This document shows, piece by piece, positions 36,501 through 46,890 of a DNA stretch of 64,000 bases. A program made the translations under genes and the position numbers. The DNA is from Stylophora pistillata. Lineage: Eukaryota. The notes under the pieces are model-generated. The model was given only the letters and a program-made list of their open reading frames with translations, ran no database searches and was not told the DNA's origin. How positions within the stretch are numbered: the first letter of the stretch is position 1; the number at the start of each line of letters is the position of its first letter. Where the stretch lies: NCBI RefSeq assembly GCF_002571385.2, contig NW_019217784.1, positions 2,084,863 through 2,148,862 on the forward strand, given 5' to 3'.

Positions 36501-38297
36501 CTAAACACACTCTTCTATTTCTGGCATAATCATATCTTTGATAACTAATTACAACATACAGTTTGCAAACTTGACAGGAAAATATTAGCTTACAAGATAA
36601 GGCCTGTATTTTATTGTATTGTATTGTATTGTATTGGCCTTAAACTTAAAATTTCATAGAATGTTTGTGAATCATGTCTAAAACCTCACCTTACAACCCA
36701 AAAATCTCTGCCATATAAATTAGCCACAATGGAACTGAAGACTAGACAGGAAAAGACTGCAAACATGGATACAAATCCTGAAAATTGAATAGAGAAAATG
36801 GCTCAAGAAATTTTATTGAGGATAAATTTAGTTGTAGATGGAAAACATTTCTTGAAATTAAACAATTATTGAGCAGCTACTTTCAACACACCTGTTATAA
36901 AGAACAAAGCATTTAAAAAATAACTCAACACCACTGTGAAGATTGAGCCTGCTACAAGATGTCTACTTTTCTATCGCTTTGACTGTTAGACTCAGAAAAT
37001 TGCTTTAAAATCAAAATTGTATCTACTTGCATGGATGACTATCTTACCTAAGATGTATGAAGATCCTTGATGAATAAGCTTTTTACACTGAAGATAAATG
37101 CACACAAGAGCAAAGAAATAACTTGTGGGGCCCACATGTAGGCCAGCTGGTAAAGATATCTAAAATTAAAACAAAAGGGCAAATATCAGTGAATAAAGCC
37201 TAAAATTCTTGCCAAATTCTTCACATTTAACGATATATTTACTCAAACAATTGAAACTGTCTGGATTTCTGTGAAGATTACACAAACAAATATGCAACAA
37301 TGTTGTATGGGATTTTCCATTTGATTCCATTTGATCATGTGAAAATGGAATTTCTCTCAAAGGTCCACACTCTTCTCTTAGTCGAAACCAAATTAGGACA
37401 ACTCTGATATAATTATATCAGATTTGCCTCAACTTGTAAAAAAAACATTATAAAAGGTACGATCAGAGTGGAAAGTTCAAATAATATGTTCACACCTATA
37501 ATAATTCCGATGACTAACAATTTACCAAACTCTAAATAACTTTTTTTTTATATTGACCAAATACAACTTCTTTGTGATATGCCCTAGACTACCTTCTGTG
37601 GTAAAATCATGGAAAGCAATTTGGATTAAACTATTCAGGAGGAAAATGTTTATTTACAGCAATTATCTAAAACAATTGCTTTCTTGTAAGTTCTTGATAT
37701 TCAAACAAAGCTTAGAGAGGGTTTCTTACACCGCTTCCCATTCAAGTTGTTAATTTCCGCTAAACTGAAATATGTACACCGCAAATGAGATTAGGTTATG
37801 GCCATAAATTCACACTATTCAAACCATTTCCTTGAATGACTTTCGTATGATTTCTTTGCTCATTAAGCAGCACGCAATTGAATTAGTATCGTGGACGAAC
37901 TTTCATGAAATCAAAAGGCATAAACCATAACCTGACATTCGGTGTAAACACTTGTCGATATCTAAGCTATGAATTTAGTCACGACATGATCCGTACCAAA
38001 ACATCCTTTCAAAGTGGAAGTTTGCTAAATTTGATCAGACTTATTTGCTACAAAGAAGATATACGTAGCGGTCTAAAACTGTACCCAGTAATTTAAATTT
38101 CGATAAGTCTGGAAAAGTCTACTGACCTCCTCGCCGGAACCTATGGTCAGGTCTTTAGAAGAATGTGTTGCATCGTATATATTCAAACTTAACAAACAAA
38201 CAGTTCCAGTGATACAGACCAACAGAACTTCAACAGGATGACGAGAACACTGTCTACCATGGTAGTAAAACAGGTTTGAAATACCACTTTGCGACAT
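27530..38297 (-). CDS. HMGCR: 3-hydroxy-3-methylglutaryl-CoA reductase (class I), 22 coding exons; last exon 27590-27530 ends ...GSKNCAVL*
   Basis: Membrane/sterol-sensing-domain exons plus catalytic motifs [57 protein letters not shown] and RSHLTLNRS. The splice phases checked are consistent. Confidence 0.96.
35278..36860. other. Duplicated ~410-bp segment including an 88-nt HMGCR exon (35515-35602 and 36690-36777); probable haplotype-merge artefact
   Basis: 35278-35685 is nearly identical to 36448-36860. A single n at 35686 is followed by a reverse-complement copy of the flank. Confidence 0.75.
35804..36451. mobile_element. Kolobok-like foldback element with a THAP-domain N-terminal remnant
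   Basis: TTAA-AGTGCACC ... GGTGCACT-TTAA with about 300-bp arms. 36079-36150 reads [24 protein letters not shown] (THAP-type MPxxC-x4-C...H start). Confidence 0.75.
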
Positions 38298-39968
38298 GAA
38301 GAATTTTTTTAACCGAAAACTTGAAACACTTGAAGTTTACTCCCTGCCTTCCAGCATGTTATGTCAAAAAACGTGGCCGGTTACCAAGCCGATATGACGC
38401 AACTCAGGGGGGTAAATCCCTTGTTATTTTAGCATCAAGTTAGCTTAAGACAAAAAAATATGCCTGGATCGGATTAATTTTGCCACAAAACGCGGAAAAT
38501 TTTCTGATATTCGTATTATTCACCTGAAAATAGACAAAAGCAAACGATTGTTGATTTTCATGAAAATGAGACAACCGCAAAGCCAGAAGAGTCATGTGAC
38601 ACAAATCTTTCGTTCGTAAAGCACCATGGGTATGTACCCATAGTACCTAGCAAACTCCTAACGCGTGCACCAGGTGTTCAGGAAAAAGAAGGTGAAAGGA
38701 GGAATTTGGTGAGTAAAACTTTGCTTTTTCGTTAATTCTAAGCAATCTTTTCGCACAACAGTACCTCAGGAATGTTAAAACGATATTTTTTATCTCAGCT
38801 GTATTTGATAATTTATGTATTCTGGTCGAAAGCTGCGAAAAATCGCTCCGATTATCTGCACGCGTGCATGCACCCAACTGGTACTGAGAGCATTGAGTTA
38901 ATTTTACGTTAGCAAAATCATTCGGCAAATTGACCTTTTTTCTTCTTTCAAACCCATCGTGTACTTCCCCTTAAGAATGATAAATATAAAGTTAATGCAT
39001 TGCAAAAGGCACTAGATTTTCTTGTCAAATGCACATGTAGTTCGCCGTTTCGTGTGATTCGCCACTTATTGAGGAAATTTTTTTGTGAGGGCCATGCCGT
39101 ACTCACATCATCTTGCAAACGAGTAAGCTTGGCGAGCCCTGGTTTCTCCCATGAATTTTAAATATCTCTAAAATGGAAGAATATTAATTTTATTGTTTTT
39201 GAGAAATGGCTGATTGATTCCTTTAGTATATACGTTGTATCAAGGAATAATTATGGTTAAATTGTCTTCAACAAGCTATGCATCATTATATAGCCGTCCG
39301 TAATGCATTTATCTTTAAAAATGTATAAGTAAGCAATAGAACACATTTTTGCAGGCCCAATAACATGATAAAGTCATGAAGGATGATAGGAGAACACAAA
39401 AAAAGCTTGTAAATCACAAGCCGAAGGCAAGTGATTTACAAGCTTTTTAAGTCTTCTTCCAATTTCCCAAGTGGTTTTATCACATTGTAGAGCCTGCAAA
39501 AATGCATTCTATAGCTATTATGACATAACTACCTACATGCAGGCTCTATAACATGATAAAGCATCCACTTGGAAACTGAATTGACCAATCAGTTATTATC
39601 AATTATTAACATTTATAATACTGTCTAAAAGGAATGCTGGAATTAATTTTTGCTGGTATGGCAACCATGCAAACTAAGGGTTATTTTTAGTATAATATTT
39701 AGAAAAATCAACAAAGATATCAACATTTCTGACATGTGAACTAATGAAGGGCAAACAATTTTGTTAGTCACATGGAAACTAATTATCATGTTTCTTTCTG
39801 TGAAATGGCAGATTTTTCTGCCATGAAGATGGGATATATATTTTAATAGTTATTCTGTTCAGTGTCTGTTCATCATGAGCTGGATCTTCTTTCAACTAGC
39901 CAGGCTTTAAAAATGAGGCTTAAGACCTTCTCTTTGAAGAGTATCATTTCTCTCAAACTTTTTTGTTA

Positions 39969-41092
39969 TTAACACATTGACACCTGAACTGCCCGTAACT
40001 GCCCGAACGTCGCAATTGCCTCGCGCGAGAACGCTTTCCCCCTTACCTCCCTTACTAAGTAGAGTTTTGTCCCCAAACTTCCTCTATAGTTTGGAGATCA
40101 ATAAGCCAATCAGAATCCGTCGCTTGAGCATATATTTTGTTGGCTTTAGGGGGTACTAGAGGGGCATTATTCTATGTGTCTTCACTAAATGACCAAATTT
40201 GAAAAGATGGCATCCTCGCGGCCAACCCTCAAAATTTTCAGGTCTGATTTTTCGTTCATTTGCGATCGAGTTAGACCTTGTGGAACTCAGAATGTAAAGT
40301 AACAATGCTATAGAATACTCTGCTTGGAAAAGAATGGATATCAAGGTCTTCAAGGTGACAGAATAAGCTCTCGAGTCAACGACACTACGATTCTCTAAGG
40401 TGATGCAAATTATGGACGTAAAGTGAAAACCGAACTTTCGGACGTCAAGCAGGGCCTAGCGACAATTTGACAATTGGATGGCCCGGTAAATATTATGTTA
40501 GAGTAACAACGTGTTCAAAAAGTATTGTTTCATAGAATATTTTGCCTCAAATTGAAGTTTTTTCAGAATTTTCAACATAATGCTGTGCAATTTCTGGCCA
40601 TGAAGGCAAGTAAACAACGATCTAAGCATGATGAATTTTACCGCCTGGGCTTTGTACATGTAAGAAATTCCTACGTTTTTCGCTTATAACAGCAAATCAA
40701 AAACTGTTTTGAATAAATCCGACATCCCGAAATAATTCTTGGCCATTTTAGTCTAGCTTCCTATTGATAGATTCCTTGGAACTTGAGATCTCTTCACTCA
40801 TGGAGAAATTTGCATATTCCCTTTTGAAATATGATCCACGCGCCCATTTTCACACATGCGAAAATATTTAGCGATTTTTATCTTTCATCTTGATTTTTGA
40901 GTTAAAACATAATATGCACCTATGGCTTTTTTTGCCGGAAATAGGTTCTTTAATTTGTCTTCTTTCACTGGAGCTTGTTTTTTGGAAAAGATGATTTTTA
41001 AAAATTTACTGTGCATTGTGTTTGCCTTCTTGGTTTCTCCAGAATTTTGACTTTTCGTAGGCAGGTGTTACATGTAAGTGTCAATGGGTTAA
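39969..41092. mobile_element. piggyBac-like non-autonomous element in the first (5'UTR) HNRNPK intron; second copy at 53305-53720 runs into a gap
   Basis: TTAA-C(A/C)CATTGACAC ... GTGTCAATGGG-TTAA. The two copies are highly similar over about 400 bp. Confidence 0.8.
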
Positions 41093-41528: not shown

Positions 41529-44500
41529 ATGGAGCAACCTGCGGCTGATCAAGGTGAGTACATGTACTTTTTCCAAGTTTTAGATAAGATTCTTGACAGA
41601 ATATTGGCCTAAAGACAGAAGTTTAAACTATTGAGGATTTAAACTCTGGCCAGTTCCAGTTGCATTTAGTTGTATAACAAACTTTAAAAACAATTTCAAG
41701 AATATTTTCGTCAAACTGTGGCTTTCCAATATAACTTTTTTGGAGTTAACTTCTAGCTCTTTTAAAAGAAAACTGAATTTTTCCTTTTAAAATGATAAAG
41801 GAATGGGGATGAAGAGACCAGCTGAAGAGGACTACAACAGCAATGTTCATGCCAAGAGAGTGAAAGATGAAGAGGGTGGAGTTAGTGGAGAACAGACAAC
41901 TCTTCGCTTTTTACTTGAAAGCAGGGTAAGAAGTTTGATAAGGATTATAGTTTTATAGTGTTGTCAGTACAGTTTTGTTTGGCGGTCATGTTTGTCCCTG
42001 TTCTGTTTGATGCATCTGTGGTCATTCAAATTTCTTCTTGGAGTGGAATTTTCCAAACCAGTTTCTTCTTAATCATCTTCCCTTGTTTTTGGTTATGAGG
42101 ATAAATACAAGACAAAGGAAAACAAAAATCAAACTGTTTTGCAAAATTTGAACCATAGCTTATCTTTAACCAGATTTCCTCATGCGGCATGTAGGTGTTG
42201 TGTAATTAATTTTTTTCAAACATGATTATGAAAACTGAAATAAATATTGACAGCAAAGTAGGCAACTTTGTGACATTCAATCGAAAAGGTATTTTGGGGA
42301 AAATGTTTGCATGAACTGTAATAGATAAAAAATTTTGAACCAAGTTACCTGCTTGTTAGTAAGGGGATTTTGATAAAAAAAAATGCATTGTTTATTAATT
42401 ATTTTAGACACATCTGATGCTATTCTCTCTCGATATATTTTAGGATGCTGGTGGTATCATTGGCAAGGTAATGCTTATTTGATGGTAGTATGTACTTGTG
42501 ATTAGATTTACTTTGATGAAAGAACTTTCATCGTATCTTGGGTTCAGTAACTTTGTTTTATGCATGCTGATGATGCCTTTGTGAAGCCTTTGATGAAGTT
42601 GTGGAGTATAAAATGAAGTATAGTTTCAAAGTTTAGAAACAAGATGACAGATAGTTGCTCCCTGTATTAGTATTGCAAAGCTTATAAATAATAAATCTCG
42701 TATTACTGTTGATTAGTATTACACCTATTTACAAACATTTGTTTTCTGTTTTCAGGGGGGACAGAATGTGAAAAGATTACGTAGTGAGGTATGAAACTAT
42801 GTTTTTTTTTTCTTTATTCTATGTTTTGAAACAGTTTTGTTTATAGTTAAATTGCAAATAGATCAGTGTTTGATTACTGGTCCAATTTACATCAGTAAAC
42901 AGTTATGTATGAAAAGTTGGTAAACAATTTCTTTTTCTGCTTCACGAGATTTATTATCACTGGTTTGATGTCAATGTTAAAATTTTTTAATCTCATCATG
43001 ACTTATTTTGTTTGTCTCTACATACGCATTTAGCAGATACTGTATTGACGTCCAGATGAATTATTTCATTCACAATAATTTTACATTATGTTTCAAGGGT
43101 TTTTACCTCATAAGATTGCCTCTGTTCCTCTTTAAATGTTTTATGACTTGTGATTTTCCCAGGCTTAGGCTTTGAACTGCATTCTGTTTAACTCCTTCCT
43201 TTCCCTTGTAGCTTATCCAGCTAACCAAGTACCTTCATAGTTGTCAGATGCTCTGTTCTACCTCTGGAATTATAGTAGTTTATCCCTGCTAAGTTGTTGT
43301 TGTTTTTCTCTCCTATTATTCCCTCTGTGTTCCCATCCCGGCCCTATCTACCCGTTCCCATCCATCTACCTGCCTGACACCCGCCCGTGTTGGTCCCTGT
43401 TGTGATCTCACCCAAGTTCAAAGCAGTGGTCAATGTCCCGGATACCAATACCCCTGAGCGGTATGTCCCATGCGTCACATTAATGTGTGTCCTGGCTTCC
43501 TTTACATTACACTGCATGTCACTGATAACAGTGTAATCCTATCATAACTAGTGGGATTGATTAAAACTATAGATAGAAGTCATGCCTCAAACTTTTACTT
43601 TAACTCAAATGCCAGATTTTTGGGGTGTAATGGCCAGTATTGAATGAGTTGAGTGATGTAGATATGAGCATATGCTGTTTGATGCCCTTTGTTGTATTGA
43701 AATGTAATGTTTTCTGTGGTGGTCATTCATATATTTCAAATTTTCTGTTAGGAATGTTAGGATGACTTTACTACCATAGACACATGTGTATCAGAAATAA
43801 GCACATGTCCTAAAAATGTGAACAATCACATTTTGGGCACTTGAGAAGTGAGGAAAATTCTCAAAACAAAAATTTGCTTCTTATATAAATGGTGTCTCTA
43901 CCCAATCTGTTTTGTCTTAGTTTTTAAGGCATGTAGCCCTCTGCACACTCTCATTTCCAAATTATTTCTTTATTCATAGTGTATTAACCATCACTGCTGC
44001 TTATGATGATGCAATGGCCATATTTTCAGAGTGCTTACCAAAGATCGGTGGGGTAAGATGACTCAACTTCAACAATTTTGATATGTTTGGGTCGAAAGAG
44101 ATCACATTTTGCAGGCAACAAATTTTGGTTCTGTTGTCATATATGTTCCTGAAATCATTTGCATTTGGTCTAAGTTTGCATTTTCAAACCATAAATGATG
44201 TACTTTCTTCAGTTATGAAGGGTTTTTGACAGAGGCTTCAACTAATAAAAGTGGTCATTTATGAAGCTTTGAAGGCTGGTGGGCTATTTGTTTGGGATTT
44301 AACTCTGGCTCTCTGTTTTTACCTGTTGTATTGTTTATGGTTATGTATATGGTTTATGGTTAGGTATATGGTTATGGTTATGTATGTTTACCGCCTCCCA
44401 GTTAGCTCAATGGTTAGAGCGCTGGACTGTTGTGCGGGAGGTCGAGGGTTCGAGCCCCGGGCTGGACCAACACTCAAGGTCTTAAAACAAGTGAGAAGAG

Positions 44501-46890
44501 TATGCTACCTTTCTATAACATCAAGAAATGGTTAGATACTCTAGTCTTCTCGGATAGGGACGAATAAATGGAGGTCCCATCTCCTGCAAGATTAGGGGGA
44601 GGAAACGTTAATTTCCCGAGATTACTGTGTGATGGATGTCCTCCCCTGAGGTGGTTGCTGGATGGGAATTGGCCTTGAAAAGTCCCCATGGGGAGTGGTC
44701 AATTAACATATATATATGTATGTAATGCGGTCCTGGTTTCTTTATGATACTAGCTGGTCAGAATAAACTGATTACAAAACTGAACTTTTTTTTGTACTTT
44801 TTTTAAGCGCCAATCAAATCCCAATGGGAAAGAAATCCAGATGTTAGTACAACGAAGTCAGGTCGGGAGTGTGATTGGGCAAAAAGGACAGAAAATTAAG
44901 GAAACTCGAGAGGTAATTTTTGCTGGGTAATGTTTCCTGGATAATTTTAAGTGTCACAAAAACAAAGAAAAGATGTACTCAAGGAGAAGTTCTCTGCTAA
45001 TAATTCTTTTTATTTTCTTGGCAGAAAACTGGAGCACAAATCAAGGTGAGTGGGTTTGACATAAAGCACTTCATATGTTAACTTAAATTAATCTGTTAAC
45101 TGTTGACAAGGCAAGAAGTTGTTTGTTTTCTTGAATTTTTTGATGTTGTAACAATGATTTCATAGCATGCCTATTTATCACTTTAAGGTTCATTCTGATT
45201 GTTTACCTGGATCAACAGAAAGAGTCGTGTCTATTCGCGGTAAGTTTTTGATCATTAACATGTTTCTTTGCCCTCAGTTATATCTCTTTCACCTCTGCAC
45301 TCAACATAATATCCTAAATGTGAGATTTTTCCCACAGGTACTGATGAAGTCATTGTACAATGTGTCAGAGAAGTTATCGATCAGTTAAATGAAGTAAGTG
45401 AAGGAGGAAGTTTTATCAATATTTTTTATCCTTAAGAAGGCAATATGCAAGCTCTGCTAGCTAACCTTTGTTGGGCTTTTTATTATAGTTATTGAAGTAT
45501 ACAAAACATTTCTTTAGTCTCCCTTGAAAGGGTCAGTGTCCTTGTACGATCCAGCTGGCATGAATGACTGGGATTATGGTGGTGGTTATGGACCCAGTGG
45601 AGGTGGCCGTGGACGTGGAGGAGGCAGAGGACGGGGGGGTCGAGATGGAGGAAGAGGAGGATCTCGTGGAGGTCGCGGGGGAAGAGGTGGTTTTGGTGGT
45701 GGTGACAATATGGGATACGGAGGAAACTACTCACAAGATTTTGTAAGTTTCAGATGTAATTGATTGGTCAGCAATTTCAAAGTATTTGCTGGAGATTTCA
45801 CCTTTATCTTCTGGAGAACATCTGTAAAGCCAGATTGATCTAATATTTGTGATTTTTTTTTTTTTAACATTTCAGGGTGGTGGAAACGTGGGAGGTGATG
45901 TGGGAGGTAAAAATCATGTCTTATTCTCTTTGTAATGTTTAAGGCAAATACATTATGCATAATATTGAATGTATACTTACTTTTTGTCTAAGCTTCCTCA
46001 TACAACATTTACCCCCTGAATGTGGGGTGCAGAAAATTTCTGTGGAGATTTTTACATTGTTGAGTGATAAACACTTTCCTTAAAGCTCCACACACTTAAA
46101 AATTATGTGGAATGATGGTGGTGATTCTGTTTGGCTTGGGCCATCAACCTTTTAAGAAATTATCTTTGATGAAAATCAAGCATTGTGTCAGAAATAAAAC
46201 TGTTTCTTTGCATTTTGTATTGAAGGTCAGTGGAATCAGGGGGGGCCTTCAGCAGGAGGAGAACAAACTACAACACAAGTTACCATTCCCAAAGATGTAA
46301 GTTACATTTATTAAGGTCCTTGCTGAGGAAATGGAAATTGTCTGTTCTTCTTACCAAATTGAAACCTGTTTGTTTTATTTAGGTATTCAAATGCACTAAT
46401 TAAATGACAACCTTTTTATAGTTGGCAGGGTCTATTATTGGAAGAGGAGGAGAAAGGATAAGACAAATAAGGTGAGGATATGAGATGAATACACTCTATG
46501 TTGATTCTGGAAGTTATTTTAAGTATGAAAAAGGATTGCAGCAAAGTATGTATACCGGTACTTTACATAACCATTCACTTGTATGTTTGCAGAAGTCGCA
46601 GTGGCGCAAACATAAAGATCGATGATCCTCTTCCGGGTTCAAATGACAGGATTATCACCATTGGGGGCAACCAATCCCAGATTAATTTTGCTCAGTTTCT
46701 TCTTCAACAAAGGTAAGTTTATCAACACTTCTATGATAATTAAAAGGTTTATTCTAGAAATTGGCTAAATAGGGCGCACAAGTTGCTACCATCTTTTTGT
46801 CCAGGTAAATTTGGTTCCACCATCCATCTTAGCTAACAACTGAATTTTTTTTCTTGCAGTGTACGACAATACTCGGGCAAGAATTACTAA
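41529..46890 (+). CDS. HNRNPK: Heterogeneous nuclear ribonucleoprotein K (3 KH domains, RGG region; many small exons of 21-51 nt)
   Basis: Bipartite NLS KRPAEED...KR; KH1 [44 protein letters not shown]; KH2; RGG repeats; KH3 [25 protein letters not shown]; end [10 protein letters not shown]. Confidence 0.93.
44391..44725 (+). mobile_element. tRNA-derived SINE in an HNRNPK intron
   Basis: gttagctcaatggttagagcgctggactg...ggtcgagggttcgagcccc (A and B boxes) continues into a non-tRNA body and a (TA/TGTA) tail. Confidence 0.75.

Follow-up and report, generated by a model that had tools for sequence, protein, structure and literature searches.

An AG-free, C-rich acceptor with a predicted distant branch point before the 44-nt KH1 exon of a coral hnRNP K gene: a layout shared by corals and mammals and a candidate for self-regulation

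In vertebrates, a class of exons with distant branch points has been described. In the accessible sections of Gooding et al. 2006 (PMC1431707), such exons lie behind an AG-exclusion zone (AGEZ) of at least 100 nt, followed by only a short second zone, and are sensitive to newly created AGs, while a branch point with its tract at the 5′ end of the zone is the hallmark of the class. PTB (PTBP1) exon 11 is arranged in the same way: this small exon, in the gene of an RNA-binding protein, follows a long AG-exclusion zone and has its branch at -351 (PMC1431707). The consulted parts of two papers report that PTB-induced skipping of this exon yields an NMD substrate (Gooding et al. 2006, PMC1431707; Spellman et al. 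2007, PMC1940037).

The closest described system is human HNRNPK itself. In the part of Taggart et al. 2017 (PMC5378181) available to us, Table S5 lists 13 branch positions from human lariat reads located 230-270 nt upstream of one acceptor, and none at the expected distance near it; four of these positions are classed as distal in Table S2 (-240 to -251), and Table S11 gives HNRNPK DBP primers for human, mouse, rat and zebrafish; the main text, in that part, leaves HNRNPK unnamed and connects the branch neither with feedback nor with hnRNP K sites. Three of the tabled branch motifs occur in the mammal-like locus L014 of our own comparison, within 1 nt of the tabled offsets. The branch rows carry no gene name, and we take them to be those of HNRNPK from their genome position together with the motifs in L014. 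A distant branch point before the 44-nt exon is already known for vertebrates.

The Au-Kline variants c.214-6A>G, c.214-35A>G and c.214-77G>A (PMC13494470, PMC9606382, PMC9001983, PMC9664736) fall in the same acceptor zone, and c.214-6A>G is described in the available sections of these papers as giving an out-of-frame, NMD-sensitive transcript. They are disease alleles and not natural regulation, and in those sections no tie to a distant branch point is drawn. Placed in the context of L014, each of the three would create an AG, as the scanning model predicts. The string HNRPK or HNRNPK is absent from the text and two supplementary files of Gooding et al. 2006, and a term search of the main text of an autoregulatory NMD screen that included HNRNPK eCLIP and knockdown (Pervouchine et al. 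2019) did not find HNRNPK named. Knockdown of HNRNPK is described, in the portion of the report consulted, as raising the retention of 130 introns in K562, which does not give the sign of any hnRNP K feedback. A literature search that covered subscription journals thinly returned no paper on splicing autoregulation of hnRNP K, enrichment of its own motif or conservation in invertebrates.

The window analysed here is a stretch of 64,000 nt of the Stylophora pistillata genome (contig NW_019217784.1, forward strand). It contains an hnRNP K gene with the following parts around the exon of interest, where X numbers denote runs whose assembled contigs were aligned to the window.

41529..46890, + strand: hnRNP K gene, 16 coding exons (KH1, KH2, RGG, KH3), 361 aa, from the open spliced frame
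42756..42788, + strand: exon 4 (33 nt) with the upstream donor; joint 42788>43417 in X5, X11 and X23
42789..43416, + strand: intron 4, unspliced in RNA contigs, with its boundary to exon 5 bridged in X1, X2, X4 and X12
43415..43416, + strand: productive acceptor AG, without a pyrimidine tract of its own; joint in 3 of 8 runs, score -6.5
43417..43460, + strand: exon 5, the 44-nt frameshifting KH1 exon, orthologue of human c.214-257
43461..43979, + strand: intron 5, unspliced in RNA contigs, with its boundary from exon 5 bridged in X1, X2, X4, X5 and X11

The encoded protein has the KH1-KH2-RGG/KI-KH3 layout and is closest to hnRNP K, as expected of an orthologue. Its KH3 exon is 98% identical to that of the Oculina patagonica hnRNP K homolog, for which the top solved-structure matches are the KH3 domain of hnRNP K, and the genome contains a single KH3 match. 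The gene model is supported by RNA contigs, which list 13 of its 15 coding joints and, separately, the exon 5-6 joint. The initial annotation, made from the sequence alone, had given the exon behind the C-rich zone as 44 nt long, placed an exon of equal length at the equivalent position in human HNRNPK and predicted that its skipping shifts the frame. The length was confirmed in the sequence, the human counterpart spans c.214 to c.257 according to the variant names in the accessible text of PMC9606382, and translation of the skipped form gave a product of 77 aa instead of 361 aa. In total, eight alternative forms were translated, and all of them stop 777-1470 nt before the last junction, against a threshold of more than 50 nt; the unproductive forms end in or just past KH1, with 70-108 aa compared with 361 aa.

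The same annotation had described the sequence before this exon as free of AG, unusually rich in C and closed by a weak acceptor, and all three properties were recovered. The relevant elements are as follows.

43294..43414, + strand: AG-exclusion zone of 121 nt, read from the sequence
43287..43293, + strand: predicted distant branch point TGCTAAG with branch A 43292 (-125), the best branch-plus-tract score in the zone
43294..43320, + strand: U-rich pyrimidine tract adjoining the predicted branch point, seen in the sequence
43320..43414, + strand: C-patch spacer, candidate hnRNP K binding region, with 10 CCC, 2 GCCC, no GCCCA and no CCCC

The closest AG upstream of the zone is 43292-93, nine further AGs lie between 43161 and 43293 beyond those previously named, and the second AG-exclusion zone measures 13 nt. 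Positions 43321-43440 form the most C-rich 120-mer of the whole window (0.40; mean 0.18, SD 0.05), and the productive cccAAG acceptor scores -6.5 on a small 35-site matrix. AG-to-AG gaps of at least 121 nt are found 4 times among 3895 in the window, while the AG-free zones at the 14 other acceptors of the gene are only 11-44 nt long. On shuffling, the absence of AG in this zone alone has P=0.13 and is largely explained by the low purine content; the significance of this absence comes from the cross-species data.

For this comparison, metagenome contigs were scanned with a degenerate pattern that required a 44-nt exon, so that lineages that lost this exon are invisible to the counts. Of the 64 loci obtained, 3 were cut short upstream, and the 61 with enough flank were combined with the window into 21 groups, between which the 120 nt upstream of the exon are not alignable. 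According to their exon peptides, compared with named proteins, these groups are stony coral, anemone-like, mollusc-like, insect-like, teleost-like and mammal-like, besides several less well placed invertebrates; these affinities are rough, as the peptides are only 14-117 aa each. An AG-free zone of 118-396 nt was present in all 61 loci, corresponding to 121-396 nt (median 228 nt) in all 21 independent groups, whereas 22 neighbouring control acceptors from the same loci had zones of 11-79 nt (median 29.5). One of these controls, the 'ex6' call of L001, is probably false; it is included in the 22 but was dropped from the affinity and polarity/acceptor analyses. The C fraction was 0.37 in the zones and 0.19 at the control acceptors. 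No AG was counted where 1.5-6.0 per locus were expected, and shuffling gave P<0.06 for its absence in 19 of the 21 groups. The second zone was 0-60 nt long across the groups, and GA was not excluded; the 21 groups, the window among them, all combine a zone of at least 100 nt with a short second zone. The conservation of the C-tract in cnidarians and bilaterians that had been put forward as a check was found, as an AG-free, C-rich layout in 21 of 21 groups. This layout is pan-animal and persists from corals to mammals even though the sequence itself cannot be aligned.

Within the zones, the composition is polarized. In all 21 groups the 5′ third contains more T than the 3′ third, in 19 of them C is higher in the 3′ third, and for 17 of 21 groups the best branch-plus-tract site, scored with a hand-set matrix, falls within the first 30% of the zone, compared with a mean of 6.8 and a maximum of 13 groups in shuffles. 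In the window, a branch consensus (A43292) with an adjacent U-rich tract is likewise found near the 5′ end of the zone. TGCTAAG is invariant in five corals, and a related CTAAG is present in the anemone-like locus L035. Gene models of Porites evermanni and P. lobata contain a 53-aa insert whose first 11 residues are the same as those encoded from window position 43279 onward, so that conservation of the branch block reaches Porites. A nearer branch-like CTGAC (-40) was found in the window only and is missing in the four other corals. Taken as a prediction from sequence, the acceptor of the 44-nt exon very probably has a distant-branch-point layout. A distant branch point, which the initial annotation had not considered, explains the AG-free zone better than a competing acceptor does, and the TAA at 43290-92, read there as a stop codon, is probably part of the branch motif.

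Compared with human HNRNPK intron 5, the coral locus shares the orthologous intron, the 44-nt exon and, as predicted, a far-upstream branch beside a U-rich tract. It differs in that the human branch is located ~245 nt away and the coral one at a predicted 125 nt, that the human intron lacks an upstream acceptor of the coral type, and that the distal branch is known only for vertebrates. Similarly, while the distant-branch AGEZ class, in the accessible text of Gooding et al. 2006, is described for vertebrates, the hnRNP K intron is conserved from cnidarians to mammals.

When the zones were compared with dinucleotide shuffles, the top 4-mer was GCCC (116 vs 51, z=11), which occurs in every one of the 21 groups and exceeds expectation in 20, and the top 5-mer was GCCCA (39 vs 8.6, z=10.6-10.9), above expectation in 18. 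In contrast to these motifs, CCCC is depleted (42 vs 132 expected). GCCCA is the hnRNP K motif from in-vitro RNA Bind-n-Seq, as cited in the accessible parts of PMC11269977 and PMC12333503. CACGC, the second reported hnRNP K motif, showed no enrichment across the zones. The zone in the Stylophora window carries two GCCC and no GCCCA, and four other corals and the anemone-like locus carry one GCCCA each. Weaker enrichment was observed for YCAY (z=3.9) and YGCY (z=4.4). The GCCC/GCCCA enrichment would provide the conserved own-protein sites expected at a site regulated by hnRNP K. C is abundant on the donor side as well (median 0.30 vs 0.15), which contains the following element.

43461..43469, + strand: donor GTATGTCCC with adjoining C patch, identical in the window, L035, L014, L020 and L064

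These nine intronic letters are common to coral, anemone-like, teleost-like and mammal-like loci, corresponding to 5 of the 21 groups. Behind the donor, a hairpin-capable CACTG...CAGTG (43509-43535) is kept in corals, without covariation.

Combined, we prefer a reading in which the AG-free acceptor is likely served by a distant branch point and the C-patch spacer likely binds hnRNP K, an excess of which would stall splicing of its own 44-nt exon; from the sequence data, we put its probability at roughly 0.58. The starting point is visible in the sequence, namely a branch-like motif and U-tract ~125 nt before a weak AG with no AG between. By analogy with the human orthologue and known distant-branch exons, the spliceosome would branch at A43292 and then take the first downstream AG, 43415-16. 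Motif enrichment suggests that hnRNP K may coat the GCCC/C-patch spacer as well as the C patch that follows the donor. High levels of hnRNP K might then leave the exon poorly defined, so that introns 4 and 5 would be retained, as they are in some RNA contigs, with exon skipping or, in corals, use of the 43211 acceptor as presumed rarer outcomes. In translation, each unproductive outcome meets a premature stop. If such RNA stays in the nucleus or is cleared by NMD, a negative loop would be closed. Feedback by hnRNP K on its own exon, taken by itself, is somewhat more likely than not. The parallel with PTB exon 11 goes only so far, as PTB feedback has been shown experimentally whereas we infer that of hnRNP K; in addition, the PTB spacer is U/C-rich and serves an RRM protein, while GCCC patches would serve a KH protein here, and in coral contigs retention was seen and skipping was not.

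The most serious alternative, to which we give considerably less weight, is a distant-branch acceptor without self-feedback, which either only slows splicing or lets PCBP, NOVA or MBNL cross-regulate hnRNP K. In its favour are the reported general delay of splicing by distal branch sites, the enrichment of YCAY and YGCY in the zones, the lack of GCCCA in this coral's zone and the absence of HNRNPK from the main text of the autoregulation screen, as far as the available text goes. Besides, the genome contains a three-KH frame (L066, G000:C477) that looks NOVA-like, making it a possible second regulator at YCAY sites. Against this, the top motif is that of hnRNP K itself, with a z well above those of YCAY and YGCY, and long C runs are depleted. 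No PCBP-like match was found among the 11 KH loci read (4 ORFs, 7 translated) of 59, a search that misses exon-split genes and in which hnRNP K itself is absent from the 59 KH matches.

RNA contigs were consulted for the forms expected under the self-feedback reading and its rivals. In 20 of 24 listed runs, at least 93% of the words from 43140-43500 are present, and 11 of those are recorded as RNA. Eight runs, all as contigs, were aligned, six chosen because they contain the stretch and two from outside this set. The exon 4-5 joint was found in three of the eight and the exon 5-6 joint in two. With at least 31 letters required on each side, the unspliced intron 4/exon 5 boundary was bridged in four runs and the exon 5/intron 5 boundary in five. 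In X2, X5 and X11, records carry the whole of intron 5 and are spliced further down, and in X5 and X11 a separate record joins across introns 1-3; the main contigs of these three runs lack the spliced intron 5 joint, which the assembler may have dropped, so that dominance of retention is not implied. In X12, the spliced exon 5-6 joint occurs alongside a complete intron 5; X23 is fully spliced and has no cover of introns 3-5. Introns 3 and 6 are covered too in X1 and in part in X12; X2 and X4 have no cover over exons 1-3, and X21 has none over intron 4 or exon 5. The upstream contig of X21 ends one unaligned letter past exon 4 with no joint listed; a split of the assembly into inclusion and skipping forms would be consistent with such an end, since both next exons start with T, but the case was not counted. 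Contig depths in X12 were 117 for intron 4, 101 for intron 5, 203 for the exon 5-6 joint, 9 for a piece of intron 3 and 46 for the start of intron 6; being a single figure per contig, such depths were not used for ranking. A Logan protein of the Porites cluster (P0020) has foreign in-frame sequence before exon 6 and spliced exons behind it, and the foreign sequence would be intron 5. Altogether, the unspliced introns 4 and 5 in contigs of polyA RNA show presence and not regulation, an observation weakened by the choice of runs containing the stretch, by nascent RNA or DNA and by assembler pruning.

The joints 42788>43212 (upstream acceptor) and 42788>43980 (skipping), proposed earlier as the diagnostic ones, were listed in none of the eight contig runs, in all but one of the rows, and contigs drop rare forms. 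The first of them belongs to a second alternative, in which hnRNP K would block the productive acceptor, the principal off-product being spliced to a poison acceptor at 43211 and then degraded by NMD; we regard this as improbable. The elements concerned are as follows.

43188..43211, + strand: candidate upstream (poison) acceptor, comprising TTAAC, a pyrimidine tract and AG 43210-11, from the coral alignment
43168..43530, + strand: coral-conserved island around the 44-nt exon, from identity to four coral loci

Identity to the four coral loci is 70-88% in 43168-43416 and 60-81% in 43461-43530, and drops to 32-50% elsewhere in introns 4 and 5. As had been noted, AG 43210-11 is the stronger acceptor 205 nt upstream, scoring +3.7 on the 35-site matrix (top 1.5% of 3259 AGs), and the TAA at 43290-92 is in frame from 43212, giving a stop at codon 27. 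The tract and AG are kept inside the island in five of five aligned corals, with extensions of 205, 212, 208, 208 and 214 nt that are never a multiple of 3, and contigs would miss an NMD target because of its rarity; in X11, a mean contig depth of 31.9 over the 3′ half of intron 4 against 2.6 over its 5′ half is a weak hint in the same direction. However, contigs of six runs (X1, X2, X4, X5, X11 and X12) cross 43211 without a break, the combination of conserved elements and frameshift found in all five corals has no equivalent outside corals, and the Porites models (P0002, P0017) take a different AG, the equivalent of 43277-78, for their in-frame KH1 insert. The TAA was rejected as a conserved stop, as the first stops fall at codons 27, 67, 83, 83 and 26 in the five corals. 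A pan-animal poison acceptor was rejected too, as outside corals the top-scoring AG upstream does not exceed the strongest one within 150 nt of downstream intron, and in 9 of 21 groups it keeps the frame, and the coral alignment shows no conserved donor for a cassette poison exon at 43212-43293.

The Porites insert is either a real isoform breaking KH1 or an annotation artefact; a protein search with it gave matches in the Porites cluster only, and the extension from the 43277-78 equivalent is stop-free in L010, L053 and L055 and not in the window. The block TAG-TTTATCC-(1-2 nt)-GCTAA occurs twice in tandem (43209-43225 and 43276-43293; the first copy reads CTTATCC in the window), as if an acceptor/branch unit had been duplicated.

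With conservation confined to corals and its junction listed in none of the eight contig runs, the competing acceptor is not supported as the core mechanism of the ancient negative-feedback circuit that was initially proposed. What stands of that proposal is the antiquity of the element (21 of 21 groups), an enriched motif that is that of hnRNP K, and unproductive forms that stop early. The 43211 acceptor is plausibly a coral-specific addition rather than part of an ancient core, and its use at some level in corals is possible, at slightly under even odds.

That the zone is a local compositional oddity, an embedded non-coding RNA or an RNA structure unrelated to splice regulation, as P=0.13 for AG absence in the window alone might suggest, is very improbable, being already contradicted by the cross-species counts (21 of 21 groups share the layout although their sequences cannot be aligned), and a structured RNA or embedded RNA gene was rejected because the Rfam search of the stretch gave six matches, all far below gathering scores, and, of the 72 pairs predicted in the consensus fold, 1 showed a compensatory two-sided change.

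Taken together in the preferred self-feedback reading, the parts could form one self-sensing element dating from the cnidarian-bilaterian ancestor, with a distant branch, a scanning path paved with GCCC(A), a motif grammar and a coral-added poison acceptor; from the sequences compared, we consider this unified picture evenly balanced between true and false. If true, few conserved splicing feedback elements of animals would be as old, and the clustering of deep-intronic Au-Kline variants in this one intron would be accounted for. If hnRNP K represses the exon, the zone becomes a candidate target for raising the output of the healthy allele, and AG-creating variants in the ~250 nt of human intron 5 deserve scrutiny. 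In terms of evolution, a non-coding splicing layout has been preserved from corals to mammals in sequence that cannot be aligned.

Several further observations were made in the gene and elsewhere in the window. In Oculina, an optional 8-aa segment follows the first coding exon (P0001 vs P0015). Intron 6 contains a high-copy repeat at 44390-44700 (contig depth >10,000) that is SINE-like by appearance and in which ARAGORN finds no tRNA. On the minus strand, a frame at 38073-38336, which appears to resemble the N-terminus of HMG-CoA reductase, stands head to head with the hnRNP K gene and has no Pfam match. Near-identical repeat copies occupy ~39900-40455, 53180-53700 and 54600-54790, two of them flanking an N gap of ~900 bases. 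Finally, a plus-strand exon at 52133-52252, with a weak CUE/UBA-like match (E=0.002, below the cut-off), is probably the start of the next gene.
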